The notes: a model not told the origin generated them from the sequence alone. Numbered from the stretch's first letter, positions 3,251 to 32,033 are shown. The stretch is DNA of 64,000 nucleotides from an uncultured Candidatus Saccharibacteria bacterium (GCA_964401055.1 CAYNWW010000004.1:13390-77389); one strand, 5' to 3'. Numbers and translations are program-made.

Positions 3251-3259
3251 ATCCGCGAC

Positions 3260-4572: not shown

Positions 4573-4581
4573 GAGGTAAAA

Positions 4582-4878
4582 TTAACTAATAGAAGAAGTG
4601 CGGCTGCGTGCAGGCGGGACGTCGTCCTCACCCCCGGAATTCCACGGATTGCAGCGGGCGATGCGCCACGCGACGAGTGCGCCACCCTTGATGACGCCAA
4701 ATCGTTCGATCGCTTGTGCACCGTACATGGAGCAGCTGGGCGAAAAACGACAGTAGCCGTACGGAAAAAACACTTTGAGCGGGCCGTGGTCAAACGACAA
4801 CGTGTGCTGGTACACCCAAATCAATGCGAGCACCACGCGCCGCGGAATTTGCGTAAGCGTGAAAAAGATTTTTTTCAT
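4582..4878 (-). CDS. yidD: Membrane protein insertion efficiency factor YidD
   Basis: YidD signature (YQHTLSFDHGPLKVFFPYGYCRFSPSCSMYGAQAIERFGVIKGGALVAWRIARCNPW). Start at MKKIFF (4878), overlapping the rnpA stop in an ATGA arrangement. Confidence 0.85.
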   Translation of the reverse strand: MKKIFFTLTQIPRRVVLALIWVYQHTLSFDHGPLKVFFPYGYCRFSPSCSMYGAQAIERFGVIKGGALVAWRIARCNPWNSGGEDDVPPARSRTSSIS

Positions 4879-5222
4879 ACAGACACTCCGGTGCGAATCC
4901 GCGCCAGACACTGGCTCAAATCATGCACCAACACATCACCGGGCTGGCCAATTATTCCGGCAGATGCCCACACAATAATATCATATCCGGGTGCGATTGT
5001 CGGCAGCATCGGACGGACAGCTTCGCGCAGCAAGCGCTTGACGCGATTGCGGGCAGTGGCACGCTTGCTGATTTTGTTGGAAACAATAAAGGCAAACCGA
5101 GTGGTCGGCTTGCCAGTTTTGACCGCGCTGATTTGAAGATAGCGTGCGCGAGAGCGAGTTCCGCGCCTCATGCAGTGCTGGATATCGGCGCTTTTTTGCA
5201 AACGAAACGGGCGCGCGAGCAC
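4875..5222 (-). CDS. rnpA: Ribonuclease P protein component RnpA (GTG start)
   Basis: RnpA motifs (RLQKSADIQHCMRRGTRSRARYLQI ... FIVSNKISKRATARNRVKRLLREAVR). Canonical position between rpmH and yidD. Confidence 0.9.
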   Translation of the reverse strand: MLARPFRLQKSADIQHCMRRGTRSRARYLQISAVKTGKPTTRFAFIVSNKISKRATARNRVKRLLREAVRPMLPTIAPGYDIIVWASAGIIGQPGDVLVHDLSQCLARIRTGVSV

Positions 5223-5230
5223 AGGCGCGA

Positions 5231-5365
5231 TTAGACCGTAAGTTTTGCGCGGCCTTTTTTGCGTCGGCGCTTCAAAACTTTGCGACCATTGAGAGTCAAC
5301 ATGCGCTTGCGAAAGCCATGTGTGCGCTTGCGCTTGATCTTTTTTGGCTGATACGTGCGTTTCAT
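5231..5365 (-). CDS. rpmH: 50S ribosomal protein L34 (44 aa; missed by the ORF track because under 60 aa)
   Basis: Hand translation of the reverse complement gives [44 protein letters not shown] followed by a stop, an unmistakable L34. Sits directly upstream of rnpA. Confidence 0.9.
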
Positions 5366-5436
5366 AAATATCGTTAATTAACGGACACTGATGAATTTAT
5401 CAGAAAAATGGCGGGGCGTCAACAGTGTAACGCGAT

Positions 5437-5466
5437 TTGACGATATCATCCCTTCATGGTAAAAAT
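5437..5466 (+). promoter_or_regulatory. Candidate promoter (TTGACG, 17-nt spacer, TAAAAAT) for the 5493 two-gene cassette
   Basis: Hexamers read directly; placed about 25 nt upstream of the SD. Confidence 0.3.
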
Positions 5467-5468
5467 AC

Positions 5469-5484
5469 CCTCCTATAGAGGAGG
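5469..5484 (+). promoter_or_regulatory. Small hairpin sequestering the Shine-Dalgarno (CCUCC, 6-nt loop, GGAGG) of the 5493 gene
   Basis: 5-bp stem CCTCC/GGAGG with loop TATAGA. The GGAGG lies 8 nt upstream of the GTG start. Possible thermometer-like translational control. Confidence 0.3.
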
Positions 5485-5492
5485 AACTCATC

Positions 5493-5852
5493 GTGAACAC
5501 CGGTCTTGCAAATCCAGAAGTCGTTGCGCGCACCCTGCTTGATCAGCTAACCGCTTTGGGCGAAGGCATTATTACGCGCATCAACGAGGCGTCCGCAAAC
5601 CTGAAAGGAGTTATCGACATCGAACACACAGATGGCGGATGCATCATCTGCAGAAGTCCAGACAAAGCAAGTCGACACCTCATCGGGGTCGATTGGAAAC
5701 GTGTCGCTGGCGCAACTGTACATCGCAATGCAGAAGACGAGGGCCAATCAGTTGTAACTGTCAAAAATGCAGCTGGCGCAGTCTTGTTGCAGATTATGTA
5801 TCCAGGAGAATACTTTAACCGTATTGACGCTTATCTGAAAGGTTGCCGATGA
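5493..5852 (+). CDS. Hypothetical protein (119 aa), first gene of a two-gene cassette between rpmH and oriC
   Basis: GTG start with a strong SD. Clean 119-codon frame in a region that looks lower in GC than its neighbours. Its stop overlaps the next start as ATGA. Confidence 0.5.
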   Translation: MNTGLANPEVVARTLLDQLTALGEGIITRINEASANLKGVIDIEHTDGGCIICRSPDKASRHLIGVDWKRVAGATVHRNAEDEGQSVVTVKNAAGAVLLQIMYPGEYFNRIDAYLKGCR

Positions 5853-6127
5853 AAGCACGGCTGATTGCTCTAGTGCCTTCCAAGGAAGACCCGACAATTC
5901 TCGCGCGAATACTTTGCTGGAAAAATCGGAGTCATATCGCAATCATCCCGGCGTTTAATAGCAAGGGAGAATTGTACAACTGGCACTTCGCATTTACGTG
6001 CTGTTGGAACAACCACGCCATTTTCGACTCGCGGTCCATACCCATCAAAGGCGACATACTGTATCCTATTCCCGAGCACATACGAGACGAATTCCTGAGA
6101 AAAATTAGGCACCCCCAAGCTCGATAA
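5849..6127 (+). CDS. Hypothetical protein (92 aa, Trp/Cys-rich), second gene of the cassette
   Basis: The ATG at 5849 overlaps the upstream TGA (ATGA, translational coupling). No recognisable family (…CWKNRSHIAIIPAFNSKGELYNWHFAFTCCWNNH…). Confidence 0.45.
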   Translation: MKARLIALVPSKEDPTILARILCWKNRSHIAIIPAFNSKGELYNWHFAFTCCWNNHAIFDSRSIPIKGDILYPIPEHIRDEFLRKIRHPQAR

Positions 6128-6156
6128 TCATCGGGCTTTTTCTTTTCCCCAGATCC

Positions 6157-6382
6157 TGTGGATAGTGTGCATGACTTGGGGAAACATATACACAACGCGC
6201 ACCCGCTCGAGCACAAGCTTTATCCGCAGTTTCCACAAGTTATCCACAAACTTATCCACTTATACACAGAGTTGTGCACATGCTCTGGGGAGATCGTGGG
6301 GAAAATACAAAAAATCCGCGCAGAAAAAGGAAAAAATTTGTGGATTTGCTTTTCCACCGCTCTCATGTAAACTTGTGGATAA
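6157..6382. promoter_or_regulatory. oriC part 1: DnaA-box cluster upstream of dnaA
   Basis: Perfect TTATCCACA at 6240-6248 and TGTGGATAA at 6374-6382. One-mismatch boxes at 6157-6165 (TGTGGATAG), 6220-6228, 6252-6260 and 6260-6268. Confidence 0.6.
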
Positions 6383-6442
6383 GACGCGGAGAGAAAATTT
6401 TGAAATACAACGTAACGTGAACAATAAGGTGGGTGTATTTGT

Positions 6443-7987
6443 ATGACGAATCAAGAAATTTGGAAAGCGGCGCTCGGAGAACTTGAACTGACAGTCAGCA
6501 AAGCAATGTTTTCGACGTGGTTCAAAGACACGTTTATCTTGACCAGTGAAAATGGCAACGTGACCGTGGGCGTGCCCAACGGATTTGCGAAAGAATGGCT
6601 CGAAGGCAAGATGAAAAAAGAAGTCTTCCGCGCATTGCAACACGTGACCAACAACGGCGTACGCGAAATCAAATACCAAATCACCAGCCAAGCCCAGCCA
6701 CAAACGCCGCAACAACAAGTCCAGCTCCGCCAGCCAGTCGTCTCAATGACACAACAATCAGTTTCTTCAGCCGGCGCGGCAGCTGCCGCAATTGCATCTG
6801 CGGTTGCCACGCGTCCGTCACAGCCAACCGTTCATATTACCATTCCGGCCACCGCATCACATGCGCAATCAGGCAATGGTGGCATGCATACCCAAAGTGC
6901 GTCAGCGGCGCAATCCGGCGGCACTCAGACGCAGTCGCACACCCAAGCCAATGATTATTTTTCCACCAACCTCAACCCCAAATACCGCTTCGAATCATTT
7001 GTGGTCGGCAGCAACAACGAACTCGCGCGCGCAGCGTGTCTTGCGGTCGCCAACAACATTGGCCACTCGTACAATCCGCTCTTTATCTACGGCGGCGTGG
7101 GTTTGGGCAAAACGCACCTGCTCCAAGCAGTCGGCAATGCAATCCTTGAAAAAGATCCAACCAAAAAAGTTCGCTACGTTTCGAGCGAACATTTTACCAA
7201 CGAAGTAGTCGAAGCTATTCGCAAGCAAACCATGTCGCAGGTAAAAGAGAAGTACCGCCAGGTGGATTTGCTCATCATCGACGATATCCAATTCCTTGCG
7301 ACCAAAGAAAAAACGCAGGAAGAATTTTTCCATACCTTCAACACGCTTTACGAAGCCAACAAGCAGATCATCATTTCGAGCGACCGTCCGCCCAAAGCCA
7401 TCCCAACACTCGAGGCGCGCTTGCAGTCGCGATTTGAAGGCGGCATGATTGCGGATATCGGCGCGCCGGATCTCGAGACGCGGATTGCGATTTTGCAGAA
7501 AAAGGCGATTGAAAAAAATTTCCCGGTGCAGGAAGGCGTCTTGAGCTATATCGCGAGCCACATCCAAAACAACGTGCGCGAACTCGAGGGCGCTATGAAT
7601 CGCGTGATTGCGCAGTGCCAGATCGAGCATCTCGAGCCGACACTGGAAAATGCCAAAAGCGTGCTCAACAACATCACCTCGGCGCCGTCGAAAAAAGCTA
7701 CGTCCGTGGAACGAATTATCGACGCCACGGCCGGATATTATCATTGCAACAAAGAAGACCTGGTGGGCAAGAGTCGCAAAAAAGAAATCGTGCGTCCGCG
7801 CCAAGTGGCCATGTATTTGCTGCGCGAAGAATTCAAGGCAAGCTTCCCGCAAATCGGCCAAGAACTGGGCGGCAAAGATCACACCACGGCCATGCACGCC
7901 TACCAAAAAGTAAAGTCGGCGGTCGACAATGAAGACGCAATCCGCCAAGATATTGACTTAATTCGCCAAAGATTGTACTCTGAATAA
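6443..7987 (+). CDS. dnaA: Chromosomal replication initiator DnaA
   Basis: AAA+ Walker A GVGLGKTHLLQAVGN, Walker B LLIIDDIQFL, and a C-terminal DnaA-box-binding domain (QVAMYLLRE...GGKDHTTAMHAYQK). Long low-complexity Q/A/S linker after domain I. SD AAGGTGG. Confidence 0.95.
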   Translation: MTNQEIWKAALGELELTVSKAMFSTWFKDTFILTSENGNVTVGVPNGFAKEWLEGKMKKEVFRALQHVTNNGVREIKYQITSQAQPQTPQQQVQLRQPVVSMTQQSVSSAGAAAAAIASAVATRPSQPTVHITIPATASHAQSGNGGMHTQSASAAQSGGTQTQSHTQANDYFSTNLNPKYRFESFVVGSNNELARAACLAVANNIGHSYNPLFIYGGVGLGKTHLLQAVGNAILEKDPTKKVRYVSSEHFTNEVVEAIRKQTMSQVKEKYRQVDLLIIDDIQFLATKEKTQEEFFHTFNTLYEANKQIIISSDRPPKAIPTLEARLQSRFEGGMIADIGAPDLETRIAILQKKAIEKNFPVQEGVLSYIASHIQNNVRELEGAMNRVIAQCQIEHLEPTLENAKSVLNNITSAPSKKATSVERIIDATAGYYHCNKEDLVGKSRKKEIVRPRQVAMYLLREEFKASFPQIGQELGGKDHTTAMHAYQKVKSAVDNEDAIRQDIDLIRQRLYSE

Positions 7988-8025
7988 TCTGAGACGCCAA
8001 AGAGGCGCGAAGATATCCCCAGTTT

Positions 8026-8290
8026 TGTGGATAACCTGTGGAGAAGTGGTAAAAGATGGGGATAAGTTGGGCAGTTGTGCCCAGAATATCCTCAGGCCGC
8101 TGCGGGACAATACAGCTGCGTCCCTGTTACCCCCAATTCGTCCTCAGATTGTCCGGATGTGAATCCCCGGGTTGTGCCCAGGCTCGATTGGCGGTCAGCA
8201 CACAAAAAAGTGCGTTTTCCCCACAATCCACAGCACTACTCCTATAATAACTACAATTATTTATATATAAGAAAGAAAAAACGCTTAGGG
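8026..8290. promoter_or_regulatory. oriC part 2: DnaA box (TGTGGATAA, 8026-8034) plus AT-rich unwinding-element-like stretch (8243-8280) between dnaA and dnaN
   Basis: Perfect box and a roughly 40-nt AT-rich tract (ctataataactacaattatttatatataagaaagaaaaa) read directly. Confidence 0.5.
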
Positions 8291-9399
8291 TGGATATGAA
8301 ATTATCTTGCACACAGGAAAACTTAAATAGAGGATTATCAATTGTTGGACGGACGGTAAGCTCAGACAATGCATTACCGGTGTTGAGCAATGTGTTGTTG
8401 CGCGCAGAAAAGGGTCGATTGCAATTGTCAGCGACGGATTTGGAAATCGGCGTGGTGTGCGTGATCGGTTGTCGGATTGATGAAGATGGCGCGATTACAG
8501 TGCCGGCCCGTTTGTTAACTGAATACGTGAGTTCGCTGCCGGAAGGCACGATTGAAATCGAGCTGAAAAAGCAAGACCTGCATTTGTCGCTCGGCGAATA
8601 CAAAGCGACTATCAAGGGCGTGGATGCGGAGGAATTCCCGTTGATCCCCAAAATCGCAGAAGAGCCGGTGATGGAAATCGAAGCGCCGCAGTTGCGTGAT
8701 GCGATTGGCAAAGTGGTGTTTGCTACGACTGCTGACGAATCCCGACCGGAAATCGCGGGCGTATTTATGCGCGAAAAAGACGGCGCGCTCTACGTGGTCG
8801 CAACCGATAGCTATCGTTTGGCGGAAAAACGCGTCGATGGCGTGACCATGTTGAAAAAAGCGCACGATATTATTATTCCGGCAAAAACGCTGCAAGAAGT
8901 CTATCGGATTTTGGACGGGGTGACGGAAAAAGTGCGGATTTCGCTGTCGGAAAACCAGATTTTGTTTACCACGACCGAGATCGAGCTGATTTCGCGCTTG
9001 ATCGAAGGCCAATATCCGGATTATGAGCAGATCATGCCGCGCAAGCATGAGACTGAAATCACGCTCGATGGCCGCGAATTTTTGAAAACCATCAAGATCA
9101 CCAGTTTGTTTTCCCGCTCAGGTGCCAACGATATCAAGTTTGAATTCGATCCAGAGACCGACGAAATGGTGCTGCTCGCGGTGTCTGATCAGGTGGGCGA
9201 GAATATTTCTCGTTTCAAAGTGAAAACCACCGGCTCAAAAGGTAGCATCGTGTTCAGCTATCGCTATTTGATTGACTGCATCAACAACATGCGGGGCGGC
9301 GCGATTATGCTCGAAATTGGTGCCGACAACGCGCCGACCCTGATGAAGGTCGCGGGCACGGATGATTATCGCTATATTATTATGCCGATCAAGCAGTAA
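8290..9399 (+). CDS. dnaN: DNA polymerase III beta sliding clamp DnaN
   Basis: Typical N-terminus (LSCTQENLNRGLSIVGRTVSSDNALPVLSNVLLRAEKGRLQLSATDLEIG) and a three-domain length. GTG at 8290 or ATG at 8296. Confidence 0.9.
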   Translation: MDMKLSCTQENLNRGLSIVGRTVSSDNALPVLSNVLLRAEKGRLQLSATDLEIGVVCVIGCRIDEDGAITVPARLLTEYVSSLPEGTIEIELKKQDLHLSLGEYKATIKGVDAEEFPLIPKIAEEPVMEIEAPQLRDAIGKVVFATTADESRPEIAGVFMREKDGALYVVATDSYRLAEKRVDGVTMLKKAHDIIIPAKTLQEVYRILDGVTEKVRISLSENQILFTTTEIELISRLIEGQYPDYEQIMPRKHETEITLDGREFLKTIKITSLFSRSGANDIKFEFDPETDEMVLLAVSDQVGENISRFKVKTTGSKGSIVFSYRYLIDCINNMRGGAIMLEIGADNAPTLMKVAGTDDYRYIIMPIKQ

Positions 9400-18081: not shown

Positions 18082-19281
18082 ATGGACATGAATATGCCGC
18101 AGCCCGAGCAGCCACAACAAAAAAGTGTGTGGCATCGGATTCCGTCGGCTCCACTGTTGGCGTTGCTGATGTTGGTAATTTTAGCGTTGACCGCGCTGAT
18201 TTCCGGCGGATTGGTGTATCTCTGGGAAGAGCAAAAGCACGGCGCACCCGTTGTTGTGCATCCGGTGTCCACAGTGACATCAACGCCGATTAAAAAATTA
18301 TCCGATTCAGTGCTGTTGTATTCTGAAGAAATTTCTTCGACTTCAAGCGGCGATCGTAATTATCCGACGATTCGTATTATGAAGCACGTGGGCGCCGCAC
18401 CGGCCGAAGAGTTGGTGCGCGTGGGAAAAGTCGGCGAATATCCGATGAATTTTCTTGTAAGTCCGGATAAAAACACGCTTGCCATTAATCTCGAGACGAA
18501 AGTGCAGTTGCTGGATTTAGAGACGAAAAAGCTGACCAATCTCGTGTCCGGCGCATCTTCTGTGCAAGGACTTGTGTTTTCTCCTGATGGGAAAAAGTTA
18601 TTGTTTGTCGATCGAGCGACAATAAAGACAGCAACACTTTCAACAAAATCCATTGACAGCATTACAACTGTTGATACTGACATATCTCTTTTTCCGTTAT
18701 TTTGGAGATCCGATGACGTGGTGTTTTTTGAAAGAGGCCTTGGTGAAATTGGCGAGGGAAAATATTTGGACTTGAAAACAAAAAAGCTTGTTGATGCTCC
18801 GGGTAAAATGGAGTACCGTGCGTTTAATGCGTCGGGTTCAGTTGCTGCCGTCGTAAAGAATACATCCAAGGATGTCTGTAACGAATTTTTCGGATCTACG
18901 CCCAGCGAATATTCGATCGTTGATCCGGTGACCGGTCAAGAATCCTGGAGTTTTGGTCGTACGGGTGAGCGAGTGTATCCACTGGGAATTTTCTCTGATG
19001 GGACAAGGGTGCTCTTTGCGAGCGAAAAAATTCCGGCGAAATATGGTGATTGTAGTACGGTAGCTGGCCGCACGTACTACGTATTCAGCAAAGACGAAGA
19101 ACAGGGGGAGTCAGGTGATCCGATTGGTCTTGCGCGCGAGTGGGATTTGCATCAAGTCGGCGTGACATATAATGTGACTGCAAAAAAATCTGAAATCATC
19201 GTGGATCTTGGCAATGGCGCGACCGAAGATCTCGCAGCTGGCAGCAAAACCGTGCGCGTGATTGACCAATTTTACAAATAG
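18082..19281 (+). CDS. Hypothetical membrane-anchored beta-propeller (TolB/WD40-like) protein
   Basis: N-terminal TM (LLALLMLVILALTALISGGLV). Repeats of the SPDGK/SPDKN type (LVSPDKNTLAIN, VFSPDGKKLLFVD). Confidence 0.45.
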   Translation: MDMNMPQPEQPQQKSVWHRIPSAPLLALLMLVILALTALISGGLVYLWEEQKHGAPVVVHPVSTVTSTPIKKLSDSVLLYSEEISSTSSGDRNYPTIRIMKHVGAAPAEELVRVGKVGEYPMNFLVSPDKNTLAINLETKVQLLDLETKKLTNLVSGASSVQGLVFSPDGKKLLFVDRATIKTATLSTKSIDSITTVDTDISLFPLFWRSDDVVFFERGLGEIGEGKYLDLKTKKLVDAPGKMEYRAFNASGSVAAVVKNTSKDVCNEFFGSTPSEYSIVDPVTGQESWSFGRTGERVYPLGIFSDGTRVLFASEKIPAKYGDCSTVAGRTYYVFSKDEEQGESGDPIGLAREWDLHQVGVTYNVTAKKSEIIVDLGNGATEDLAAGSKTVRVIDQFYK

Positions 19282-19353
19282 AATTGCGAGTATAATTAGT
19301 TGCATGTTTTGTCTTTTTGCGCTATGATTTGCCTTCGATTGAGGAGGTGGGTT

Positions 19354-19752
19354 ATGGATTGGGAAGAAATAAGAAGATCAACAAAAACGCCTCTCGAATT
19401 GCATATTGAGGAGCTAAAAAAGCTGGGGCTGATCGTTCAGCCGCCCAATTTAGAAGCTGCGCTAGGTGTTTTGCGATATATTGCAGCCGATGAGCTTTAT
19501 TATCAACCCGAGACGTATCCGTTGCATCTTATTCATTCATCTCGAGAGGACCGCGTGCGGGAGGTGCAGGAGTGGCATAGACAATATGTTAATACACACG
19601 TTTTTTATCAAGGAAAAATCTACGTGTGTGAATACGTCTGCCCGCGCGTACTGACGCAGGACGGGTGGATTGGGTTTTTACGAAAGCTTGATCCAAAAAA
19701 ACGCGGAGGCGTCCTTGCTGATATGAGGCATGTCACAATTGCCCCGTGCTAA
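19354..19752 (+). CDS. Hypothetical protein (133 aa)
   Basis: Strong SD (GAGGAGGTGGG) upstream of the ATG at 19354. No family recognised. Confidence 0.4.
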   Translation: MDWEEIRRSTKTPLELHIEELKKLGLIVQPPNLEAALGVLRYIAADELYYQPETYPLHLIHSSREDRVREVQEWHRQYVNTHVFYQGKIYVCEYVCPRVLTQDGWIGFLRKLDPKKRGGVLADMRHVTIAPC

Positions 19753-19775
19753 TCGCAGAGTAAGTGCTGCGATTT

Positions 19776-22163
19776 TTATTTTGGCAAAAAGCGGGGCGGT
19801 TTCACGCCGGCGATTTTTGAGATTGCGTTGAGGTCGCGGAGACCTACTTTTCCGATGTAGAGCTTACGAATATCTCCGCCGCGCGCCACAAATGCGGCAA
19901 TATCTTTTTTGCCTTTGAAATACAAATAATATCGCGTGAAGGCGCCTGGTTTCGAGGTGTCGCCCATGCCGCGTTTGACTTTGAATGTAATGCTCCAGGA
20001 TTTTTCTGGGGACACACCGAGTGCGCAGAGAGCGTTGTAGGTTTCGCGAAATGAGCTGCGAAGTGCGAGATCGGTTGCGATCACGAGAAGCGCGGTGGTG
20101 TCGAAGCGGCGAGGGTTTTTGTAGATGCGTTCTTTGTTATAAATCGCCAAGCCTTCCTCGGTCGCGAGATAGTCGGCGAAGCGCGAGAGAAAAATTTTGT
20201 ATGGTTGCTGAAGGGCATTTTGGCGGCGGAGCATGTGGGTGTCGATCTCGTGTGCGAGCGTGCCTTGGAGTTCGAGAGCGGTAAAACGTGCGTTGGTGCG
20301 AAGTTTGATGGTGGGCACGCCGGCAAGCGCATGAATAGAAATGCGCGTTGGGAGATTTTTTTCGATTACCAGTTTGTATGGAAATCCATACTCGGCCATC
20401 TTTTTTTTGATCACTGCAAGTGTTGATTTGAATTTGAGTGGCTTTTCTCGGCCTTCGCGCGTATTGGCACTGCGTTCGGCGCGATATTCTTTGAGTGCGA
20501 GCTCGACAAGAGCCGCATCCGGTGCGCCATAAAGTTCTTGTGCGAATTTTGAAAAATCCGGCTTGCCGATGTGCTCGCGCAATCTGACTTTTTTGAAATC
20601 CTCATCGCGTTTGCGCGCGAGAAGCTGGTCGATCGGGTTATTATCAAATTTCATTTCATTGAGTTTTTCTTTGATGTGCGCAATCTCAGTCAGCACGGGT
20701 GGATACAAAAACTGTGGATTTGTGTCAGATGAAGCAAAAAATGCCCGCTTTTCTTCTTCGTAGTTGCTCGGACGCAGGCGGTTGAGCACCGGAATTCGCT
20801 GTGAAATAGTGGCAAGACGCTTGTCCAAGACTTTGCTTCGCGCAATCTTGCTTTCTTTTTCGGTTGGTTTGCGCTTGAGCGGATCAATGTAAAAGCCTTG
20901 CAAATCTTTTTTGCCGATGACAAGTGAAGAGGTGAGCTCGTCGTCTTTTGCCACGCGTGCAGTGGTTGCGATGCGCTCGTCATCGAGATAAAATTCGATA
21001 TCGGCGAGTTTGCGCTTGCGTTTCGGTTCTGTTGGGACGGGCTCGGTGGTGATTTCGAGGCGTAGTTCGTTTGCAAGGCTTTCGCGGATGGCGCTGAGCC
21101 CGAGTGATGTGTCAATCCGTGCGATCAGGTGATAAAATTTTCCATCATGTATTTTGAGCCGTACCGGCTCCACGAGCCCGATGACGTGCCGACCGGAAAT
21201 GTCCTCGATTTTTCGTTCGATATCGCCGCCAAATAATTCGCGCGCGACTTTGATCCCTTTGGATACACTGTCGATTTTAAGTCCGCGCACGCGACGGAGT
21301 CTACCGGCGAGCCCTGCGCGCGTCACATTTTGAATTTCCAGACCGGGGCGCGCATTGAGTTCGAGTACGATCGGGCCAAGATTTTTGTCCAGCGCGATAT
21401 CTGCTCCGAGGTAGCCGATGCCTGTCACGCGCTGACAGCGGACGGCGATTTCGAGAATTTCATCCCAAAAAGGAATTTGGAAATCTCGCAGATCCTCCGC
21501 AGTGTCGGGATGTTTGTCGAGCGAGTGGCGCCGTGGCTTTTTGACGAGCGCGGTTGTGGTCAACCCGGTCGCCAAATCAATCCCAATTCCAATTCCGCCT
21601 TGAGCCAGATTTGCTTTGCCGTTGGATTTTTTTGTGGAGACGCGCATCATGGCCATGATCGGTACGCCGTTGTACACGATGATTCGAATATCGGGAGTTC
21701 CTTTGTATGTCAAGCCGCGAAGTGCTTGGTGGTTGATGATGCGTTCTTCGAAAAATGCAACATCTGGTTGGTTGGAAATGGAAAAGTTGCCATCAAGAAT
21801 GTTGAGGATATGGCGCTTGAGATCGTTGAGGGTGTAATGTTCGCCTTTGGTCGTCACCCATGTCGTCACGCCGGAAGATTCGTCGCGCTCTTTGCGGCGG
21901 ATGACCACGATGCCTTCACCACCCGAACCTTGATTCGGCTTTATGACAAAGCTTTCGGGCAAAATGTCCCAGTTGAATTGATCCAAATCTTTTGTCGACC
22001 CGATCACTGCATGCAGTACGGCAGTTGGAATGGAATTTTTGATGAGCAGTCGCTTGGTGAGCAATTTGTTGTTTGCGATCCGAATAGCCGCGGGCGGATT
22101 GCTCCGACGCACATATTCAATGTTGCGCTCATTGATACCCAAGATATCATTTGTGCTTTGCAT
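19776..22163 (-). CDS. Fusion protein: RimK-like ATP-grasp (alpha-L-glutamate-ligase-like type) + C-terminal HExxH 'QEGLA'-type (DUF1704-like) metallopeptidase domain
   Basis: N-terminus ILGINERNIEYVRRSNP...NNKLLTKRLL plus GSGGEGIVVI and LELNARPGLEI (ATP-grasp). C-terminal LAHEIDTHMLRR (HExxH) and YLATEEGLAIYNKE (QEGLA-like). Confidence 0.65.
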   Translation of the reverse strand: MQSTNDILGINERNIEYVRRSNPPAAIRIANNKLLTKRLLIKNSIPTAVLHAVIGSTKDLDQFNWDILPESFVIKPNQGSGGEGIVVIRRKERDESSGVTTWVTTKGEHYTLNDLKRHILNILDGNFSISNQPDVAFFEERIINHQALRGLTYKGTPDIRIIVYNGVPIMAMMRVSTKKSNGKANLAQGGIGIGIDLATGLTTTALVKKPRRHSLDKHPDTAEDLRDFQIPFWDEILEIAVRCQRVTGIGYLGADIALDKNLGPIVLELNARPGLEIQNVTRAGLAGRLRRVRGLKIDSVSKGIKVARELFGGDIERKIEDISGRHVIGLVEPVRLKIHDGKFYHLIARIDTSLGLSAIRESLANELRLEITTEPVPTEPKRKRKLADIEFYLDDERIATTARVAKDDELTSSLVIGKKDLQGFYIDPLKRKPTEKESKIARSKVLDKRLATISQRIPVLNRLRPSNYEEEKRAFFASSDTNPQFLYPPVLTEIAHIKEKLNEMKFDNNPIDQLLARKRDEDFKKVRLREHIGKPDFSKFAQELYGAPDAALVELALKEYRAERSANTREGREKPLKFKSTLAVIKKKMAEYGFPYKLVIEKNLPTRISIHALAGVPTIKLRTNARFTALELQGTLAHEIDTHMLRRQNALQQPYKIFLSRFADYLATEEGLAIYNKERIYKNPRRFDTTALLVIATDLALRSSFRETYNALCALGVSPEKSWSITFKVKRGMGDTSKPGAFTRYYLYFKGKKDIAAFVARGGDIRKLYIGKVGLRDLNAISKIAGVKPPRFLPK

Positions 22164-22172
22164 GAACGGAAA

Positions 22173-23717
22173 TTATTCTTCGTGAAATCGGAGCGCTTCT
22201 CGAAACCGGAGAAGCTCAAACAAGCGCAAGCCGGTCCAGCGACCGATCACCAGATTGATTACTACCACGAGCAAGATGATCTCCGGATAGTTGATGACAA
22301 ATGATTGCAGTACGTCCCAGCTCAAAATGTAATAGCTCAATACCGAGAGGAGGACGGTTTCAAGCGATAACATGAGCGCTTCAAACGAACCTTTTTCGAT
22401 TTGCACCGAAATAAATTTTTCCACAATAATAATCAGCAGCAGCATCGGGAAAAATGATGTTGCAACTACCGGCATGTTGAAAAATGCCATTGTCGCGAGT
22501 ACCCCGAGAAGCGAGAGTGCGACCGCGGTGAGCACGAGCGCCATTTTGGGAAAATAGAAGAAATGAAATCGCTTCAAAATAAATCGGACGAGCGTGCCGG
22601 TGCCGAGCACAACCGCGAGAATAATCAATCCAATTTTGATCCCAAGCGCAAGAAATGACAGTGTGATGATCGCAGGGGCATAAATACCAAACGCTTTCAA
22701 GCCAATAATCTGTCGCGCCAACACAATGATTGTGGCAATAATCGGAAAAATGAGAATCAGTGTGATCGTGTTGATGGGAATTCCTTTGTTGACCATGTAG
22801 TTGACCAGGTAGGATAGGAAATTGAGCGGTCCGAGTTTGCCGCCACCGCGCTCGCTATGAATTCCGATCACTGAATATTCAACACTCGCTTTTTGGAGAG
22901 TTTGGGCAAGCGTGCCTCGCTGAGAAATTGTCGCATCACTGATGACGCCCATTGCTTGCGGTCTGGTGAGGATGATGGATTCCGGGCGCAGGAGATCAAA
23001 CGCGGATTGTGCCGTGCGCGCGATGACTCCAAAATTTTGATCAGTGAGAACGATGACTGTTTTGTGCGCAAAATTTAAATCACTGAGGTTGTGTGCGGCT
23101 TGTGCGAATTGGCTCAGGATGTTGAGGCCGGTGTTGCCGGATGTCCAGGTGATAATCGTATCTGCTTTGCGTACAAAATCGGTGTTGGCAAGTAGTATTT
23201 GTGTGAGCTGAGCTTCTTGCAAAAAGTCTCCGTTGCCGCTGCGATCTGCAATGGTGAACAGAAGTCGTCCTTGGCGTGCGCTAAATCGTTCGAATTGTTT
23301 GACCGTTGCAGCGTCGGTAGATGTGTCGGTCACCAAAATGTCGATGTGATCAAAGACCGATACCACAATTTCGTCGTACGAGCTTGTGCCCGCCTGCGTA
23401 TTGACGGTAAATCTGACGGCGTAATCACCTGGTTTTGCGTATTCGTGCGATGCGGTACCGCCAGCTGTGGTGATTTTTGCGCCATCGCCAAAGTCCCAAT
23501 TGTATGTCAGAGGGGAATTGTCCGAATTAATCGACGCCGATGAATCAAAAACTACCGATCTGCCAACGATCGTACTACGATCATCGCCGATTTCTGCATG
23601 TAGTTGGGGAGCCGTAACTTGTGGAGGCGTCGCATCTTGGGCATGCACTGGTTGTGTTGTGAATGAGCCGGCAAAAATTGTTGCGCATATCGTCAATGCC
23701 AGCAAGCGTGTGTTCAT
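22173..23717 (-). CDS. Secreted/membrane protein: signal peptide + PKD domain + ectodomain + C-terminal 7-TM module (7TM-transglutaminase-like receptor class)
   Basis: MNTRLLALTICATIFAGSF signal peptide. PKD motif (LTYNWDFGDGAKITT...HEYAKPGDYAVRF). Seven hydrophobic helices in the last roughly 210 aa. Start taken at MNTRLL (23717), 4 nt after the ruvC stop. Confidence 0.6.
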   Translation of the reverse strand: MNTRLLALTICATIFAGSFTTQPVHAQDATPPQVTAPQLHAEIGDDRSTIVGRSVVFDSSASINSDNSPLTYNWDFGDGAKITTAGGTASHEYAKPGDYAVRFTVNTQAGTSSYDEIVVSVFDHIDILVTDTSTDAATVKQFERFSARQGRLLFTIADRSGNGDFLQEAQLTQILLANTDFVRKADTIITWTSGNTGLNILSQFAQAAHNLSDLNFAHKTVIVLTDQNFGVIARTAQSAFDLLRPESIILTRPQAMGVISDATISQRGTLAQTLQKASVEYSVIGIHSERGGGKLGPLNFLSYLVNYMVNKGIPINTITLILIFPIIATIIVLARQIIGLKAFGIYAPAIITLSFLALGIKIGLIILAVVLGTGTLVRFILKRFHFFYFPKMALVLTAVALSLLGVLATMAFFNMPVVATSFFPMLLLIIIVEKFISVQIEKGSFEALMLSLETVLLSVLSYYILSWDVLQSFVINYPEIILLVVVINLVIGRWTGLRLFELLRFREALRFHEE

Positions 23718-23721
23718 GGTG

Positions 23722-24228
23722 CTAATTAGTGATGAGACTTTGTGAGGCCGCGTGAAGTTTGATGCGGAATGCATGGCAGAGTGCGCCGGCGATTGCATCA
23801 ACCGCGTCGTCCGGCGTGGGTGTGGTGGTGATGCGAAGGGTGAGTTGAGTCATTTTCAAAACTTGAGATTTGGTGGCGCGACCAAAACCGGTGACAGTTT
23901 GCTTGATCTCAAGAGGGGTGTATTCAAAAATAGGAATCGCGCGGGCGGCGATGCGCTCGACGGTGACGCCGCGTGCGTGTGCGACATTGAGTGCGGTGGT
24001 GGTGTTTTGTGCAAAAAATAATTTTTCAATCGAGACAACGTCTGGTCGTGCCGCTTCTAGAATTTCTTCCAAATCTCGTCGGAGAATAGTCAGTCGATGC
24101 ACAAATTCGGTGTTCGCGGGCGTAGTGATAACGCCAAAATCATGCAGCGAGAGCGAGGCGTCCGGCGCCACGTCCACCACGCCAAATCCGGTGATCCCGA
24201 ATCCGGGATCAATTCCCAAAATCCGCAT
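23722..24228 (-). CDS. ruvC: Crossover junction endodeoxyribonuclease RuvC
   Basis: MRILGIDPGFGITGFGVV ... ARPDVVSIEKLFF ... DAVDAIAGALCHAF (catalytic D/E/D/D). Confidence 0.9.
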   Translation of the reverse strand: MRILGIDPGFGITGFGVVDVAPDASLSLHDFGVITTPANTEFVHRLTILRRDLEEILEAARPDVVSIEKLFFAQNTTTALNVAHARGVTVERIAARAIPIFEYTPLEIKQTVTGFGRATKSQVLKMTQLTLRITTTPTPDDAVDAIAGALCHAFRIKLHAASQSLITN

Positions 24229-24940
24229 TGAGGTAGACTTCGGTCATATCATCGTTGTCATCGAGCTGGTTGAGGACGTCAGTGACGGCTTCAACGTCGG
24301 CCGGATTTGTGATGGTAATACGTTCTTTTGGCTTATAAATAATCTGCGCGGATTTGATCTGTGCGCCTCGCGCTTCAAATGCGCGTTTGACCGCAGCGAG
24401 TTCGGTAGGTTTTGTATATGCGACGTATTCGTCTGCGTCTGTTGTCGCATCTTCCGCGCCGCATTCGACAGCGAGAAGCAAAAAATCATCCGCGGTGCCG
24501 GCGGTTGTGGGTGGCATGACAAGCTCGCCCACGATGTCAAACATCCAAGCGACGCTGTTGCGTGCGCCAACCGTGCAGCCCGCGCGGCTCAGGATGTGTT
24601 TGATGTCTGAGTTGGTGCGGTTTTTATTATCTGTGACCGCCTTGGCAATAATTTTTGTGCCAGCCGGTCCGAATATTTCAAATGTCATCTCTTCCAACTC
24701 TTGCGCATCTTTGCCGCCGACGGCTTTTTCGATCGCGCGCTTGATGTTGTCATTGGGCAGATTGCCTTCGCGCGCTTTGTCTACGGCGAGGCGGAGGCGA
24801 AAGTTGGTGTCGGGATCGCCACCGCCGGCGCGTGCAGCCACGGTGATGAGTCGTGAGAGCTTGGTAAAAGACACGCCTTTTTTGGAGTCGGTCGCGGCTT
24901 TCTTATGCTTAATTTGTTTCCATTTGGAATGGCCGGACAT
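24209..24940 (-). CDS. yebC: YebC/PmpR-family DNA-binding transcriptional regulator
   Basis: MSGHSKWKQIKHKKAATDSKKGVSFTKLSRLITVAARAGGGDPDTNFRLRLAVDKAR, canonical YebC. Upstream of ruvC as usual. Confidence 0.9.
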   Translation of the reverse strand: MSGHSKWKQIKHKKAATDSKKGVSFTKLSRLITVAARAGGGDPDTNFRLRLAVDKAREGNLPNDNIKRAIEKAVGGKDAQELEEMTFEIFGPAGTKIIAKAVTDNKNRTNSDIKHILSRAGCTVGARNSVAWMFDIVGELVMPPTTAGTADDFLLLAVECGAEDATTDADEYVAYTKPTELAAVKRAFEARGAQIKSAQIIYKPKERITITNPADVEAVTDVLNQLDDNDDMTEVYLNADFGN

Positions 24941-25009
24941 AGGTATGTGTCGGTGAATACGGCCGAATAATACTCCGATGCGTGGCCGTTGTCAACCCTT
25001 CGCGTGCGC

Positions 25010-28585: not shown

Positions 28586-29926
28586 TTATTTTTCTAACGT
28601 ATGTGTTTCTTGGAGGAGCTGAGAGATTCTTTTGATAAATGTTTTGCTGAGATCGATGTCGAGATTGGAAAATTCGGCGCGTTTGGTGAAGCAGATCAGG
28701 ACGCCGCTCTCTTGGTGAATCGGGAAATACGAGATCGAGATGATGGGCTGAGTCAGGTGTTGGAGTTGGATTCCGCTTGATTCTTCTTTGGTGAGGTTGA
28801 CTACTTGAAAGGGGAGACCTCGGGATTGAGCAAGTGAGATATAGGCTGGAAGCTTGGCAAGACCGGGGTCGGATCGACGAATGAGTTTGTTTTTTCCGTG
28901 GAGGAGGAGATGTGTCTGCCCGCGAGCAGATGAGTCCTCAAGTCTGAAACAAGCGAATTCGCCACCCAAAATCATGGTGATTGCTTCAATGATTTGGTAC
29001 ACGCTATCGAGTGAACGGTCTTCGCGATCGGGCATAAGGTTTTCGATGTCGATCACGGATGCGAGCTGACGATTTACTTTGCCTACTTCAATATAGGAAG
29101 TATGAAGTTCGGCGACTTTTTCGTCAAGATTTTTTGCGTATTGATGGAGTTCGCGCTGAAGCGTGACTTCTTTGGTGACGTCGTCAATGACTTGAACCAC
29201 GCCGATTGTGTTGTTGCGGTCGTCTTTGAGCGGGCCGAGACGAATGTGAAAATATTGAATGCCTTTGCGAGTCGATGGGTAGAGTTGGTAGCGAAATGAG
29301 CGCGCCTTGCCGGTGGCGATGACATCGCGAAATCCGTCGCGCACGGCCTTGCTCGCGTTGGGCGCATAGTTTTTGTATAAAATGCGGCCAAGAATTTCTT
29401 CTTTGGGTCGGCCGGAGATGCGCTCGTGCGCCGCATTTATTTTTGTGATGATGCCCATGGTGTCGGTCACCAGAATTCCGGCTGGAGAGCTGTCGATGAT
29501 GCGATCGTTGTATTCTTGCAAATACTGGATCATAGTTTTGAGCTCGGTCAGCTCGGTGATGTCTTGCAGCGAGGCGATCGCGCCAATGATGTCTCCGCGT
29601 TTGTCACGAAGCGGACTGCAGCGGGCATCAAGAAAGCGCGTTTGAGAATTGTGACGAAAGGGTGTTTCTTCGAGAATAGTGGTGCGGCCTTGGGTGAGCG
29701 CGGTGCGGAGTGCTGCGAGGAGTGCGGGTGCTTTGACGTCGAGGCACTGCACGGCCAAGTCCTGGCGCGCAGCTGCATCTTCGATGCCGGTAATGGTCTT
29801 GTATGCCGGATTTGCCTCAATCACCTGCTCTTGTTTGGAAATCACAAGCACGCCCACGAGCAATTGATCCAAAATGCTCTTGTTTAAGCCAGCTAATGAC
29901 GAAAATGTCGTGGCCGGTTGCTTCAT
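28586..29926 (-). CDS. Cytoplasmic multi-PAS sensor protein with a C-terminal GAF-like domain and no output domain
   Basis: Three PAS-like cores (ILDQLLVGVLVISKQEQVIEANPAYKTITG; IIDSSPAGILVTDTMGIITKINAAHERISG; and others). Its first 110 nt overlap the 3' end of the upstream gene in another frame. Confidence 0.6.
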   Translation of the reverse strand: MKQPATTFSSLAGLNKSILDQLLVGVLVISKQEQVIEANPAYKTITGIEDAAARQDLAVQCLDVKAPALLAALRTALTQGRTTILEETPFRHNSQTRFLDARCSPLRDKRGDIIGAIASLQDITELTELKTMIQYLQEYNDRIIDSSPAGILVTDTMGIITKINAAHERISGRPKEEILGRILYKNYAPNASKAVRDGFRDVIATGKARSFRYQLYPSTRKGIQYFHIRLGPLKDDRNNTIGVVQVIDDVTKEVTLQRELHQYAKNLDEKVAELHTSYIEVGKVNRQLASVIDIENLMPDREDRSLDSVYQIIEAITMILGGEFACFRLEDSSARGQTHLLLHGKNKLIRRSDPGLAKLPAYISLAQSRGLPFQVVNLTKEESSGIQLQHLTQPIISISYFPIHQESGVLICFTKRAEFSNLDIDLSKTFIKRISQLLQETHTLEK

Positions 29927-32033
29927 TGCAAGGTGATTGAGGAGTGGTCAGTTGTTGTAGTATATCATGGATTTTGGAGAAAAGTAGGCTTGCGAGCTGC
30001 TTCAGCGCTTGCGGGTAATTGATGCCGGTTGCCACGAGTTTTTCCGGAGTTTGCTTGGTTGTTGCAGGTGCTGCTGCGGTAGTCGCTGTACCAAACGTGA
30101 GGTCGGTCGTGCGTTGCGGGTTGATAATGAATCCTGTGCTATCTTTGGTGAGAATGCCTGTAATACCGATGGGCGTGTGTACCGGGATAGTTTTTGGTGC
30201 GCTCGTGAGGAGGGATTTTTTGATGCGAATTTGTGGCGAGTCGCCATCTGGCTTTATCGTGATGTACGCCGAAGTTTGTTTGACGAATTCGCCCGTGATG
30301 CGGACGAGTGTGTCGAGGTGTGTGTCATCGAGTTGGGCGAATGTAAGGAGTGTTGCCTCGGGTGATGAAGTGCTGTGAGATACGACTTCTATTTTTGTTG
30401 CGGAAAGGGTGACGCCTGAAGCGGAGGGTGAAATTTTGCCGGTCACTTGGATGAGGTCACCGACTGCGAGTGGAGGAAAATCTTTTTTTGATGAAGAAAT
30501 TTTGATACCGGCCTGCGAGTCTTGGATAAAAAATGTGGTCTCGCTCAAAAATCCGGGAAGGGCGGTGACCACGCCGCGCACCGTAACTGTGGTATTTTTT
30601 TGCAGTGCGCGCGCGGCTGCAATGCGTGAGATCACGGTCGGCGCAGCGGCCGCGGGCGTGGATGATCCCGAAGGCGCCGCCGTCTGTGTCTGAGGCTGGG
30701 GCAAGGAAGGCCAATCACTCGTCACTTCTGCGAGTGGACGATTAATGATATTGCTGCTTCCTGGCGTCGGAGTCGTGCTCCAGGCCCACCCTTGCGAAGA
30801 AGCAGCGAATGATTCGCCTCCCTTGCCGCCGGTCCCAATGATGATACGCGAGACGGCCGTGTGATTTGGGTTTTGCAGTATAATTTCGTCGAGCTCGCCT
30901 GTGTTCAAGCCGAGCGTGGCGAGTTTGAAACTCAAGAATTTCCCGGCCGCGATTGTGCTGTGCGCGGGGAGTGTAACTTCTTTTCCCGCGTCTTGATTGC
31001 GCACGATCCAGCCGTCGAGGTCGACGTCACGCGTATCCGTGTTGGCGAATTCGATAAAGTTGGCCGCGGTTGACGGGCCGAGAAAATAGACTTCGTTGAT
31101 TGCCACGTGCGTGGAATACGCTGGCGGCGCATTAATCATGACTGTAATTTGCGCGTCTGTCGCGCCGCCGTTGGTGTCGGTTGCATGGACATGTGCAATG
31201 TACGTGCCGGCGGTCGCGTACGCGTGACTCACCAAAGCACCCTGCGCTTCGCTCGTCACTCCATCGTTTGCGTCAAAATCCCACGAAAAGCTCAGCGCAT
31301 CGCCATCCGGATCAGCGCTCGCGCTCGCGTCAAATTGCACCACTTCACCCACGATGCCTTGCGCATCCGGTTCGACGACGATCGCGGGCGGGTGATTGGT
31401 TTCCGGATTTGCTGCGCCCATGCTTGAGCTTGTTTTGAAAAAGTCCACACTGTCCACGCCGGTATTCTGGACGCTATGGCGCGCCATCACTTCGGTCGTG
31501 ACTGAAGACGCGTCGCCGGTCAGCGCGTTATCGCCGAGCGAGCCGTCATCATACGCGCCAAGCGTGACTTTGTTCATGAGTTTGCCGCCACCACCTTTCG
31601 CTCCATCATAGATTTCAACCAGGACGTCGTTGTTCATGCTGCCGACGGGATTGCCGAGCGTAAGATAGGCGCCCGGCACAAAGTGGGTGATGTCGCCCGC
31701 GGGCTGCTCATTTTTCACCAAATCAGCGGTGATGACCGCATCGTCCACGCCCGAATCTGTCATAATTAAATGCCAGCCGGTGAGGTCGATCACGTGTGTG
31801 GATGTGTTGGTGATTTCGATATATTCGTCAGATGAAGTTACGGCTCCGAGCGGAGTGGCCACGCCGGAAAAGTCGGTGGTGCTCCAATCTTGCTGCGGAT
31901 CGGTACAGATTTCGCTGATCAAGACGTCGCCCGCTACTGCAGGCGGTGCGGCGGCGTGGACTTCGTGAGTGGCGAGTGGCGAGAGGGCAAGAACGAGGCA
32001 GGCGACTGAAATTTTTTGTATGAGTGTGTGCAT
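29817..32033 (-). CDS. Secreted multi-domain protein: lamin-tail domain x2, PKD domain, OB-fold-like domain
   Basis: Signal peptide. LTD motifs (VLISEICTDPQ...EYIEITNTSTHVIDLTGWHL; VAINEVYFLG...FIEFANTDTRDVDLDGWIV). PKD motif (FSWDFDANDG...HAYATAGTYIAHV). OB-like segment (TVTVRGVVTALPGF...FFIQD). Confidence 0.6.
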   Translation of the reverse strand: MHTLIQKISVACLVLALSPLATHEVHAAAPPAVAGDVLISEICTDPQQDWSTTDFSGVATPLGAVTSSDEYIEITNTSTHVIDLTGWHLIMTDSGVDDAVITADLVKNEQPAGDITHFVPGAYLTLGNPVGSMNNDVLVEIYDGAKGGGGKLMNKVTLGAYDDGSLGDNALTGDASSVTTEVMARHSVQNTGVDSVDFFKTSSSMGAANPETNHPPAIVVEPDAQGIVGEVVQFDASASADPDGDALSFSWDFDANDGVTSEAQGALVSHAYATAGTYIAHVHATDTNGGATDAQITVMINAPPAYSTHVAINEVYFLGPSTAANFIEFANTDTRDVDLDGWIVRNQDAGKEVTLPAHSTIAAGKFLSFKLATLGLNTGELDEIILQNPNHTAVSRIIIGTGGKGGESFAASSQGWAWSTTPTPGSSNIINRPLAEVTSDWPSLPQPQTQTAAPSGSSTPAAAAPTVISRIAAARALQKNTTVTVRGVVTALPGFLSETTFFIQDSQAGIKISSSKKDFPPLAVGDLIQVTGKISPSASGVTLSATKIEVVSHSTSSPEATLLTFAQLDDTHLDTLVRITGEFVKQTSAYITIKPDGDSPQIRIKKSLLTSAPKTIPVHTPIGITGILTKDSTGFIINPQRTTDLTFGTATTAAAPATTKQTPEKLVATGINYPQALKQLASLLFSKIHDILQQLTTPQSPCNEATGHDIFVISWLKQEHFGSIARGRACDFQTRAGD

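Follow-up and report, generated by a model that had tools for sequence, protein, structure and literature searches.

A module of two adjacent genes, located on the minus strand of a 64,000-nucleotide (nt) stretch of DNA from an uncultured, ultra-small Candidatus Saccharibacteria bacterium (Patescibacteria; GCA_964401055.1 CAYNWW010000004.1:13390-77389; the whole stretch is hereafter called the window), encodes a seven-transmembrane (7TM) protein of 514 amino acids (aa; 22173..23717) and a fusion enzyme of 795 aa (19776..22163) that joins an ATP-grasp ligase, a degenerate retropepsin-like domain and a MATCAP-like Zn carboxypeptidase. Among relatives, a C-terminal Glu-Glu (EE) on the 7TM protein was found almost only where the ligase is fused to the MATCAP domain. 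By analogy with known systems, the module may be a Patescibacteria version of the RloB/RloC-type pairing of a 7TM protein with an alpha-L-amino-acid ligase, in which the counteracting peptidase resides inside the ligase polypeptide and both activities would extend and trim a membrane protein tail, probably that of the 7TM protein itself. We hold this interpretation with a confidence that stops a little short of even. Both open reading frames (ORFs) had been predicted at these positions in a preliminary description of the window, and public gene calls confirmed them.

The fusion enzyme combines a ligase and a metallocarboxypeptidase with intact active sites

The N-terminal part of the fusion enzyme (residues 5-294; 21282..22151, minus strand) is an RloC/TIGR02291-like ATP-grasp domain. 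As had been proposed for an alpha-L-glutamate-ligase-like enzyme, hidden Markov model searches matched ATPgrasp_ST (PF14397) over residues 13-293 (E 3e-74, 250 bits, cut-off 31), and TIGR02291 scored 276 bits, just under its cut-off of 314. RimK models overall reached 44-62 bits, the TIGR00768 (RimK) score of 62 bits lying below the cut-off of 143; PRK10446 (S6-Glu ligase) scored 19.7 against a cut-off of 331, and PF03133 (TTL family) had no match in the window protein, its relatives giving only E 0.04-0.07. Among solved structures RimK was the best match of this domain (5zct/4iwx, E ~1e-6), and cyanophycin synthetase was also among the structure-search matches. It shares 40-41% identity with 'alpha-L-glutamate ligase-like' genes of Legionella and Aeromonas, which adjoin inactive-transglutaminase-7TM genes. 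The catalytic residues K75, D255, E268 and N270 were invariant in a 21-sequence alignment and at least 90% conserved among 64 homologues, and these alignments show that the ATP-grasp domain retains all catalytic residues.

The C-terminal part (residues 447-795; 19779..20825, minus strand) is a MATCAP/QEGLA metallocarboxypeptidase domain. MATCAP/PF08014, formerly DUF1704, matched residues 475-794 (E 2e-42, 146 bits, cut-off 27), in agreement with the earlier proposal that a DUF1704/QEGLA peptidase is fused to the ligase; TIGR02421, the proteobacterial QEGLA model, scored 155 bits against a cut-off of 338.65, below equivalog membership. The tubulin carboxypeptidases MATCAP/TMCP, whose biochemistry has been characterised, now belong to this family (PMC10499314). 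The metal motif, previously read as HExxH, is actually HExxxH (HEIDTH, 20235-20252), the motif of the MATCAP/TMCP family (PMC10499314), and the EEG third ligand that completes the PF08014 zinc site is present in TEEGLA (20145-20162). The expected conservation of the HEIDTH site was borne out in the 64-sequence alignment, in which H638, E639 and H643 were 98-100% conserved (H638 and H643 in 64/64, E639 in 98%), E670 and G671 of TEEGLA were 100% conserved each, and K730, R731 and G732 were likewise conserved at 90% or more; most of the catalytic residues listed for the two domains reached 100%. In addition, the family profile matched the human MATCAP structures 7z5g/7z6s at E 5e-31, with the motifs aligned to 7z5g as HEIDTH/HEIGTH, TEEGLA/TEEGLA and KRGxxDTSxPG. 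As judged from these matches, the C-terminal domain is a true homologue of MATCAP, and the alignment shows that it retains the HExxxH and EEG zinc site of the tubulin carboxypeptidases. A hydrophobicity and topology scan detected neither a transmembrane (TM) segment nor a signal peptide in the 795-aa protein, which is predicted to be cytoplasmic because it has no hydrophobic segment.

The retropepsin-like domain has decayed in MATCAP-fused proteins

The enzyme had been described as a two-domain ligase-peptidase. Three domains are present, the one overlooked being a degenerate RimB-like retropepsin domain (residues ~318-432; 20868..21212, minus strand) with the decayed motif RIDTSL (21102-21119) instead of K-I-D-T-G-A. 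Relatives of 440-500 aa span only the first ~54% of the query and carry PF05618 (RimB/RloA retropepsin-like) after the ATP-grasp domain. A fused relative with 48% identity scored 37 bits with PF05618, whereas the window sequence alone, where the catalytic motif is D-T-S-L, gave no match. When the profiles of this domain from fused and MATCAP-less proteins were compared, hhalign gave 99.9% and E 1e-32, and the two are, on this comparison, homologous. The motif AK[IV]DTGA was invariant in 57/57 MATCAP-less proteins. Among the MATCAP-fused ones (n=64), D was retained in 40, T in 28 and G in 20, with IDMS or IDLS at this position in the closest relatives of the window, and loss of DTGA was confined to MATCAP-fused lineages. 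We read this pattern as peptidase displacement: the ligase always has a peptidase, and after MATCAP fusion the retropepsin site would no longer be maintained.

Glu-Glu tails of 7TM proteins co-vary with MATCAP fusion of the ligase

Relatives of the module are encoded by 595 stretches (one representative genome per species), and the best 80 were analysed by tblastn and ORF analysis; the window's own species lies outside this 80-locus set, in which the best identity was 48%. The 7TM gene stood directly 5′ of the ATP-grasp gene at 75/80 loci. Fused ligases were found at 54 of the 80 loci, with the 7TM gene directly upstream in 50/54 (median 510 aa, hence ectodomain-bearing). The other 26 loci encoded a short form consisting of ATP-grasp and retropepsin domains, and the 7TM protein upstream in 25/26 had a median of 219 aa and lacked the ectodomain.

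The 7TM protein of the window terminates in ...RFREALRFHEE. Its cytoplasmic C-terminal tail is ELLRFREALRFHEE (22176..22217, minus strand), with the terminal Glu-Glu at 22176-22181. Tails could be scored at 76 loci (the window and 75 genome loci). The 7TM partner ended in -EE in 44/51 cases when the ligase was MATCAP-fused and in 0/25 cases when it was MATCAP-less. Fused ligases with a decayed retropepsin motif accounted for 43 loci with EE and 4 without; three fused loci with an intact DTG (L001-L003) had no EE, one fused locus with DSG had EE, and EE was absent from 25/25 short-form loci, all with an intact DTG. Independent contig look-ups of other 7TM proteins matched this tail pattern in 6/7 cases, namely four non-EE proteins with short ligases and two EE proteins with MATCAP fusions. 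Similarly, the RloABC-like loci of Legionella and Aeromonas (n=2, without MATCAP) presented stand-alone ligases and non-EE tails. The correlation between EE and fusion in these sequences is thus strong but imperfect. On a rough neighbour-joining tree of the ATP-grasp domain, the combination of MATCAP, decayed motif and EE appeared in at least three separated groups: a large Peregrini/Peri/Gracilibacteria clade, the small clade of the window and a Dojkabacteria lineage.

The residues that precede EE were variable (HAEE, HLQEE, NIEE, TNEE, GEEE), and the encoded tails ranged from EE up to EEEEE. A by-product of the Shine-Dalgarno sequence of the downstream gene was considered as the origin of EE and excluded by synonymous codon use (GAA 62, GAG 24) and by the variable or overlapping spacing between the 7TM gene and the next gene, which went from overlaps to 153 nt with the exception of L005 (1693 nt). 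Literature searches returned no paper on bacterial MATCAP fusions or on an EE-tail correlation. We also sought proteobacterial trios of ligase, 7TM and QEGLA genes for their tails; the plasmid and chromid QEGLA genes examined were all stand-alone, and tblastn with the 7TM domain gave no match in plasmids.

As a separate observation, the tail of P0123, a 7TM homologue 55% identical to that of the window, reads ...RYIEEK, that is, EE plus one extra encoded residue, reminiscent of the Tyr at the end of alpha-tubulin, which is likewise genetically encoded and is cleaved off by MATCAP. Judging by contigs of equal length (24,884 bp), the partner of P0123 is apparently the MATCAP fusion P0004.

The 7TM protein carries a PKD domain and a family-specific ectodomain

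The layout previously given for the 7TM protein (signal peptide, PKD domain, ectodomain of about 200 aa and seven TM helices) was recovered by the topology scan, by PKD_4 and 7TM_transglut matches and by AlphaFold2 (AF2) models. The PKD domain (residues 41-117; 23367..23597, minus strand; PKD_4, E 9e-19) is predicted to be extracellular. It is followed by an alpha/beta ectodomain without a Pfam model (residues 118-318; 22764..23366, minus strand) and by seven hydrophobic segments, predicted as TM helices (residues ~315-500; 22218..22775, minus strand), that end in the conserved juxtamembrane motif GRWTGLRLxExxRFR. 7TM_transglut (PF14402) matched residues 318-507 (E 3.5e-28, 99 bits against a cut-off of 25), and the AF2 model of residues 300-514 was all-helical, with a predicted local distance difference test score (pLDDT) of 86. 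The predicted orientation places the N-terminus outside and the C-terminus inside. The 7TM bundle had no specific solved relative, its fold match to transporters being generic.

The claim that this ectodomain is not the usual inactive transglutaminase was supported on three sides. PF14400 (inactive transglutaminase) had no match in the 514-aa protein, and NF052267 (RloB) covered only residues 314-509, the 7TM part (71 bits, cut-off 900). Alternating beta-alpha units formed a flavodoxin/CheY-like sandwich in the AF2 model of residues 118-318 (pLDDT 87, predicted template modelling score 0.79), and a fold comparison of this model gave no papain/transglutaminase match. Scanned exhaustively with HMMER, 1.84 billion representatives yielded 102 relatives of the ectodomain, nearly all of ~500-545 aa and with the domain in the same position. 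Out of 67 relatives scanned, 65 carried 7TM_transglut and 63 PKD, and no other family recurred. Conserved ectodomain residues comprised WTSGNxGLN, K, P and N. According to these searches and models, the ectodomain is a family-specific extracellular domain in place of the RloB-type inactive transglutaminase. It defines a new extracellular alpha/beta domain family of about 100 clusters at 50% identity, almost exclusive to PKD-7TM proteins. By its domain scores, the window module as a whole is a member of the PF14397, PF14402 and PF08014 families and lies below equivalog level for TIGR02291, TIGR02421 and NF052267.

The fusion is a standard architecture in several Patescibacteria lineages

The preliminary description regarded the fusion as unusual. 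Proteins of ~790 aa with the fused architecture made up 63 of the 120 best-scoring 90%-identity clusters, and the recurrence survey found them in several Patescibacteria lineages; the source names that bear a taxon were all Patescibacteria/candidate phyla radiation or generic 'bacterium' labels. Judging by this survey, Patescibacteria of the Peregrini-, Peri-, Gracili- and Dojkabacteria types have the fusion as their standard architecture. It is already catalogued in databases: NCBI labels the fused proteins 'tyrosine/phenylalanine carboxypeptidase domain-containing protein', and JGI names the architecture too. An assembly or frameshift artefact was ruled out by the same 795-aa call at JGI, an identical NCBI protein and the 63 full-length fused clusters.

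The order yebC-ruvC-7TM-ligase was found at 28/80 loci. Short loci stood right after yebC-ruvC in 24 cases, 50/54 fused loci had no ruvC adjacency, and the fused form and the yebC-ruvC position occurred together in the window and L001-L004. In Peregrini-/Peribacteria the module lies away from yebC-ruvC. From this distribution, the yebC-ruvC-7TM-ligase order is an old Patescibacteria arrangement; it supports co-transcription and not a role in DNA repair, because most fused loci lie elsewhere.

Several individual loci were also recorded. In L085 (JGI 3300036199 contig, genes 2294-7112), a pair of 7TM and ATP-grasp-retropepsin genes lies between ruvC and ruvA, and the resulting order yebC-ruvC-7TM-ligase-ruvA places the module within the classical ruv operon in some Patescibacteria. 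L059 and L063 encode a PKD-ectodomain-7TM gene together with an unfused ligase-retropepsin, and by their gene content look like unfused intermediates; L059 (1072-6569) contains an intact-DTGA ATP-grasp-retropepsin, a second ATP-grasp protein of 500 aa and a separate MATCAP-like gene at the contig end. In L083 (ENA contig_80056, 5076-8575), two RimK-like ATP-grasp genes (297 aa each) and a Mur-ligase gene lie 3′ of a short-form ligase, which suggests larger peptide-ligase clusters in some lineages.

The module is part of an apparent four-gene operon

In the window, yebC (24209..24940, minus strand; YebC/PmpR/TACO1 family, NF001030 270 bits, above cut-off) is the first gene of the unit and overlaps by 20 nt with the Holliday-junction resolvase gene ruvC (23722..24228, minus strand), which was assigned by ORF call and domain matches. 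The stop of ruvC is followed after 4 nt by the ATG of the 514-aa gene at 23717, and the TAA stop of the latter after 9 nt, not 10 as previously counted, by the ATG of the 795-aa gene at 22163. The position of the module behind yebC-ruvC with a 4-nt gap, and its apparent operon with these genes, had been noted before and agree with the recurrence of the order in relatives. By this spacing and order, yebC, ruvC, 7TM and fusion genes form one apparent operon. A sigma-70-like promoter candidate (TTGACA-17-TATTAT, a consensus match of 11/12; 24967..24995, minus strand) just 5′ of yebC is likely the start of the four-gene unit. At the other end, a hairpin with an 8-base-pair stem (19751..19774), found by pattern match between the fusion-gene stop and a convergent ORF, is a candidate bidirectional terminator that would close it.

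With regard to the gene calls, an alternative TTG start would extend the 7TM protein to 542 aa and overlap ruvC, and this form is unlikely. The same 514-aa protein was present in public gene calls of two independent assemblies (one JGI, one Logan). The 795-aa product was matched by the JGI gene call, the Logan contig stopping within the fusion gene, and an NCBI contig also encodes 514-aa and 795-aa proteins, the 795-aa one being identical.

Flanking genes are housekeeping genes (PBP1A, TyrRS, an NHL-repeat protein, a PilT-like ATPase and a PAS protein), with no sign of a mobile island among the genes around the module. No Rfam element was found near the locus, the sole match in the window being a tRNA-Glu at 59 kb. 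The convergent ORF directly 3′ of the fusion gene (19300-19752, plus strand; 150 aa, or 132 aa in the JGI call) has no Pfam or NCBIfam match, and the hairpin is common to this ORF and the module. A further gene (18082-19281, plus strand) encodes a 399-aa protein with an N-terminal TM segment and only faint beta-propeller (PD40/WD40-like) matches, which assign it to no family. A second PKD-bearing protein near the locus (29817-32033, minus strand; 738 aa) combines PKD, lamin-tail and OB-fold (BOF/tRNA_anti-codon-like) domains.

Discussion

Starting from the observed architecture, intact active sites, gene linkage and co-variation, we infer the chemistry, substrate and signalling role of the module as follows. 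The ligase would extend a free C-terminal carboxylate by at least one amino acid, the added residue being likely Glu by analogy with RimK or possibly aromatic by analogy with TTL, and the MATCAP domain would take the added residues off again. Together they would write and erase a C-terminal mark of controlled length on the inner side of the membrane. Its most likely acceptor would be the 7TM protein's own cytoplasmic ...HEE tail, whose terminal Glu-Glu we propose as the acceptor or recognition element, and through the PKD and alpha/beta ectodomain an external cue may govern how accessible the tail is or how active the enzyme is. The degenerate retropepsin domain might be retained as a scaffold or peptide-binding module.

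Both halves of this putative cycle have precedents. Glu is attached to the C-terminus of a protein by RimK-type ATP-grasp enzymes and cleaved off by RimB (summarised in PMC12239564), and MATCAP/TMCP remove C-terminal Tyr and Glu, as well as polyglutamylation, from the ...EE(Y) tails of tubulin (PMC10499314). The family itself had been said to be known only from comparative genomics. This no longer holds, since rloABC of P. aeruginosa has genetic phenotypes (PMC12239564) and a Shewanella 7TM-transglutaminase mutant hypervesiculates (PMC12096838). In P. aeruginosa, deletion of rloB or rloC suppresses the defects of strains that lack the Rlo proteases (PMC12239564), which implies that the ligase and the 7TM protein make something that a peptidase must trim. 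A more far-reaching version of tail editing would be a 'receptor tail code', in which the ...HEE tail is reversibly extended and trimmed, its state is set by the PKD/alpha-beta sensor, and which may be ancestral to the pairing of ligase and MATCAP and constitute a substrate class for the RloB/RloC family; we offer it tentatively and consider it rather doubtful.

Some observations weigh against editing of the 7TM tail. Seven fused loci had no EE, including the nearest genome relatives of the window (L001-L004), and in the separate look-ups one EE-tailed 7TM protein (...KSIEE) was paired with a short, MATCAP-less and DTGA-bearing ligase. On the rough neighbour-joining tree, parsimony required 5 changes for EE and 2 for fusion, and the independent events are few, because most EE cases fall in one large clade. 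Moreover, the trimming proteases of P. aeruginosa are periplasmic, which would suit an exported product better than a tail on the cytoplasmic side.

Such an exported product is the basis of an Rlo-like explanation, in which the ATP-grasp domain would make a free peptide (e.g. poly-alpha-glutamate) or modify an envelope precursor, and the 7TM protein would translocate it or present it at the surface. The fused peptidases would then set chain length only, the EE tail being incidental or a docking element. We judge this explanation unlikely, although far from negligible: P. aeruginosa secretes the proteases that oppose RloB/RloC, and without them it suffers toxicity that deletion of rloB or rloC prevents (PMC12239564), the Shewanella mutant has an envelope phenotype (PMC12096838), free poly-alpha-Glu is also made by RimK (cited in PMC12239564), and cyanophycin synthetase was among the ATP-grasp matches. 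However, both peptidase domains of the window would be cytoplasmic, the fusion being devoid of signal peptide and TM segments, and the transporter match of the 7TM fold is generic. Export also leaves unexplained why the 7TM C-terminus is -EE almost only together with a MATCAP fusion. That co-variation also fits a tail that is never modified and that, as a product-like ligand, docks in the MATCAP or ATP-grasp site to recruit or auto-inhibit the enzyme, the true substrate being elsewhere. Consistent with such tethering, MATCAP-type enzymes leave -EE as their product (PMC10499314), and the juxtamembrane helix GRWTGLRLxExxRFR, which is conserved throughout the family, Proteobacteria included, is suggestive of a surface for docking. 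We nevertheless find it improbable, since the variable number of encoded Glu residues (EE to EEEEE) is more like an acceptor of tail chemistry than a fixed docking motif and the module encodes no other candidate substrate.

A soluble protein such as ribosomal protein S6 could also be the target of a RimK/RimB-like modification, with the 7TM protein as regulator and the yebC link reflecting a role in translation. RimK was the best solved-structure match, a RimB-like domain is fused to the ligase, and yebC, a translation-related factor, heads the recurrent gene order. Against this stand the scores of 250-276 bits for ATPgrasp_ST/TIGR02291 compared with those of the RimK models, which stayed below the TIGR00768 cut-off, the 7TM partner at nearly every locus and the Peregrini-/Peribacteria module, which does not adjoin yebC-ruvC, so that we give this possibility little credit. 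We consider a coupling to Holliday-junction resolution or DNA repair through the yebC-ruvC(-ruvA) operon position hardly credible. The 4-nt gap after ruvC, the L085 module between ruvC and ruvA and the synteny retained across many Patescibacteria lineages speak for it, but no domain of the module has a DNA-related function, nearly all fused loci lack ruvC as a neighbour, and the proteobacterial homologues lie in unrelated gene contexts.

Compared with known systems, the module is close to RloABC of P. aeruginosa (PMC12239564) and its Legionella/Aeromonas homologues, with which it shares a 7TM_transglut gene beside an ATP-grasp gene on the same strand (of the TIGR02291 type in those systems, TIGR02291-like in the window), a retropepsin-family peptidase as part of the system and a common juxtamembrane ...G.Y.G.RL.EL.RF motif. 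In contrast to RloABC, the ectodomain consists of PKD and a novel alpha/beta domain instead of an inactive transglutaminase, and the retropepsin has become a cytoplasmic part of the ligase polypeptide with a decayed catalytic motif, there being no separate secreted RloA gene in the unit. The window further adds a MATCAP-like metallocarboxypeptidase and ends its 7TM tail in -EE, the proteobacterial tails examined being non-EE. Among these homologues, a small gene 5′ of the inactive-transglutaminase-7TM gene on a Legionella adelaidensis plasmid (L093, 2987-3445), annotated 'RimK/LysX family protein', appears by its position to be an RloA-like retropepsin, and its product name is probably wrong.

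As in the RimK-RimB system, where RimB binds RimK and removes the C-terminal Glu (summarised in PMC12239564), a putative alpha-L-glutamate ligase of the ATP-grasp type is associated with a RimB-like retropepsin. Unlike that system, the window protein matches RimK models weakly, ligase and retropepsin are fused, the catalytic motif of the retropepsin is lost and the 7TM partner is obligatory. The RimK-RimB acceptor of E. coli, S6, ends in Glu-Glu too. The tubulin tail cycle (TTL/TTLL versus MATCAP/TMCP; PMC10499314; 7z5g, 7z6s) likewise opposes an ATP-grasp ligase to a PF08014 HExxxH/EEG carboxypeptidase, activity on an ...EE tail being a prediction in our case. It differs in that the ligase of the window is RimK/RloC-like and not of the TTL family, both activities reside on one polypeptide, and the putative substrate is the tail of a membrane protein. 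Other bacterial PF08014/QEGLA proteins, among them one whose expression in Photobacterium rises 27-fold at low salinity (PMC10308900), have the same domain and motifs; unlike the window module, the plasmid and chromid examples examined adjoin neither a 7TM nor an ATP-grasp gene. One of them, a 663-aa 'QEGLA motif protein' on the Vibrio sp. HDW18 replicon NZ_CP049914.1 (L091, 5113-7104), is a fusion of FGase (N-formylglutamate amidohydrolase, PF05013) and MATCAP, another case of MATCAP joined to a glutamate-related hydrolase; no 7TM or ATP-grasp gene adjoins it.

In pathogens, the RloB/RloC family of 7TM and ATP-grasp proteins influences tolerance of antibiotics, formation of biofilms, osmotic survival and vesiculation. 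The Patescibacteria variant and its relatives constitute a natural experiment: where a MATCAP-type carboxypeptidase is present in the fusion, the older retropepsin site decays and the 7TM protein comes to end in Glu-Glu, the form that RimK and the TTL/MATCAP pair likewise have as acceptor or product. Editing of the C-terminal tail of the 7TM protein is thus a concrete and testable hypothesis for the substrate of RloB/RloC, and it links a eukaryotic family of cytoskeletal modification enzymes to a bacterial membrane system. If true, the tail code would be a mechanistic parallel to the tyrosination and glutamylation of tubulin.

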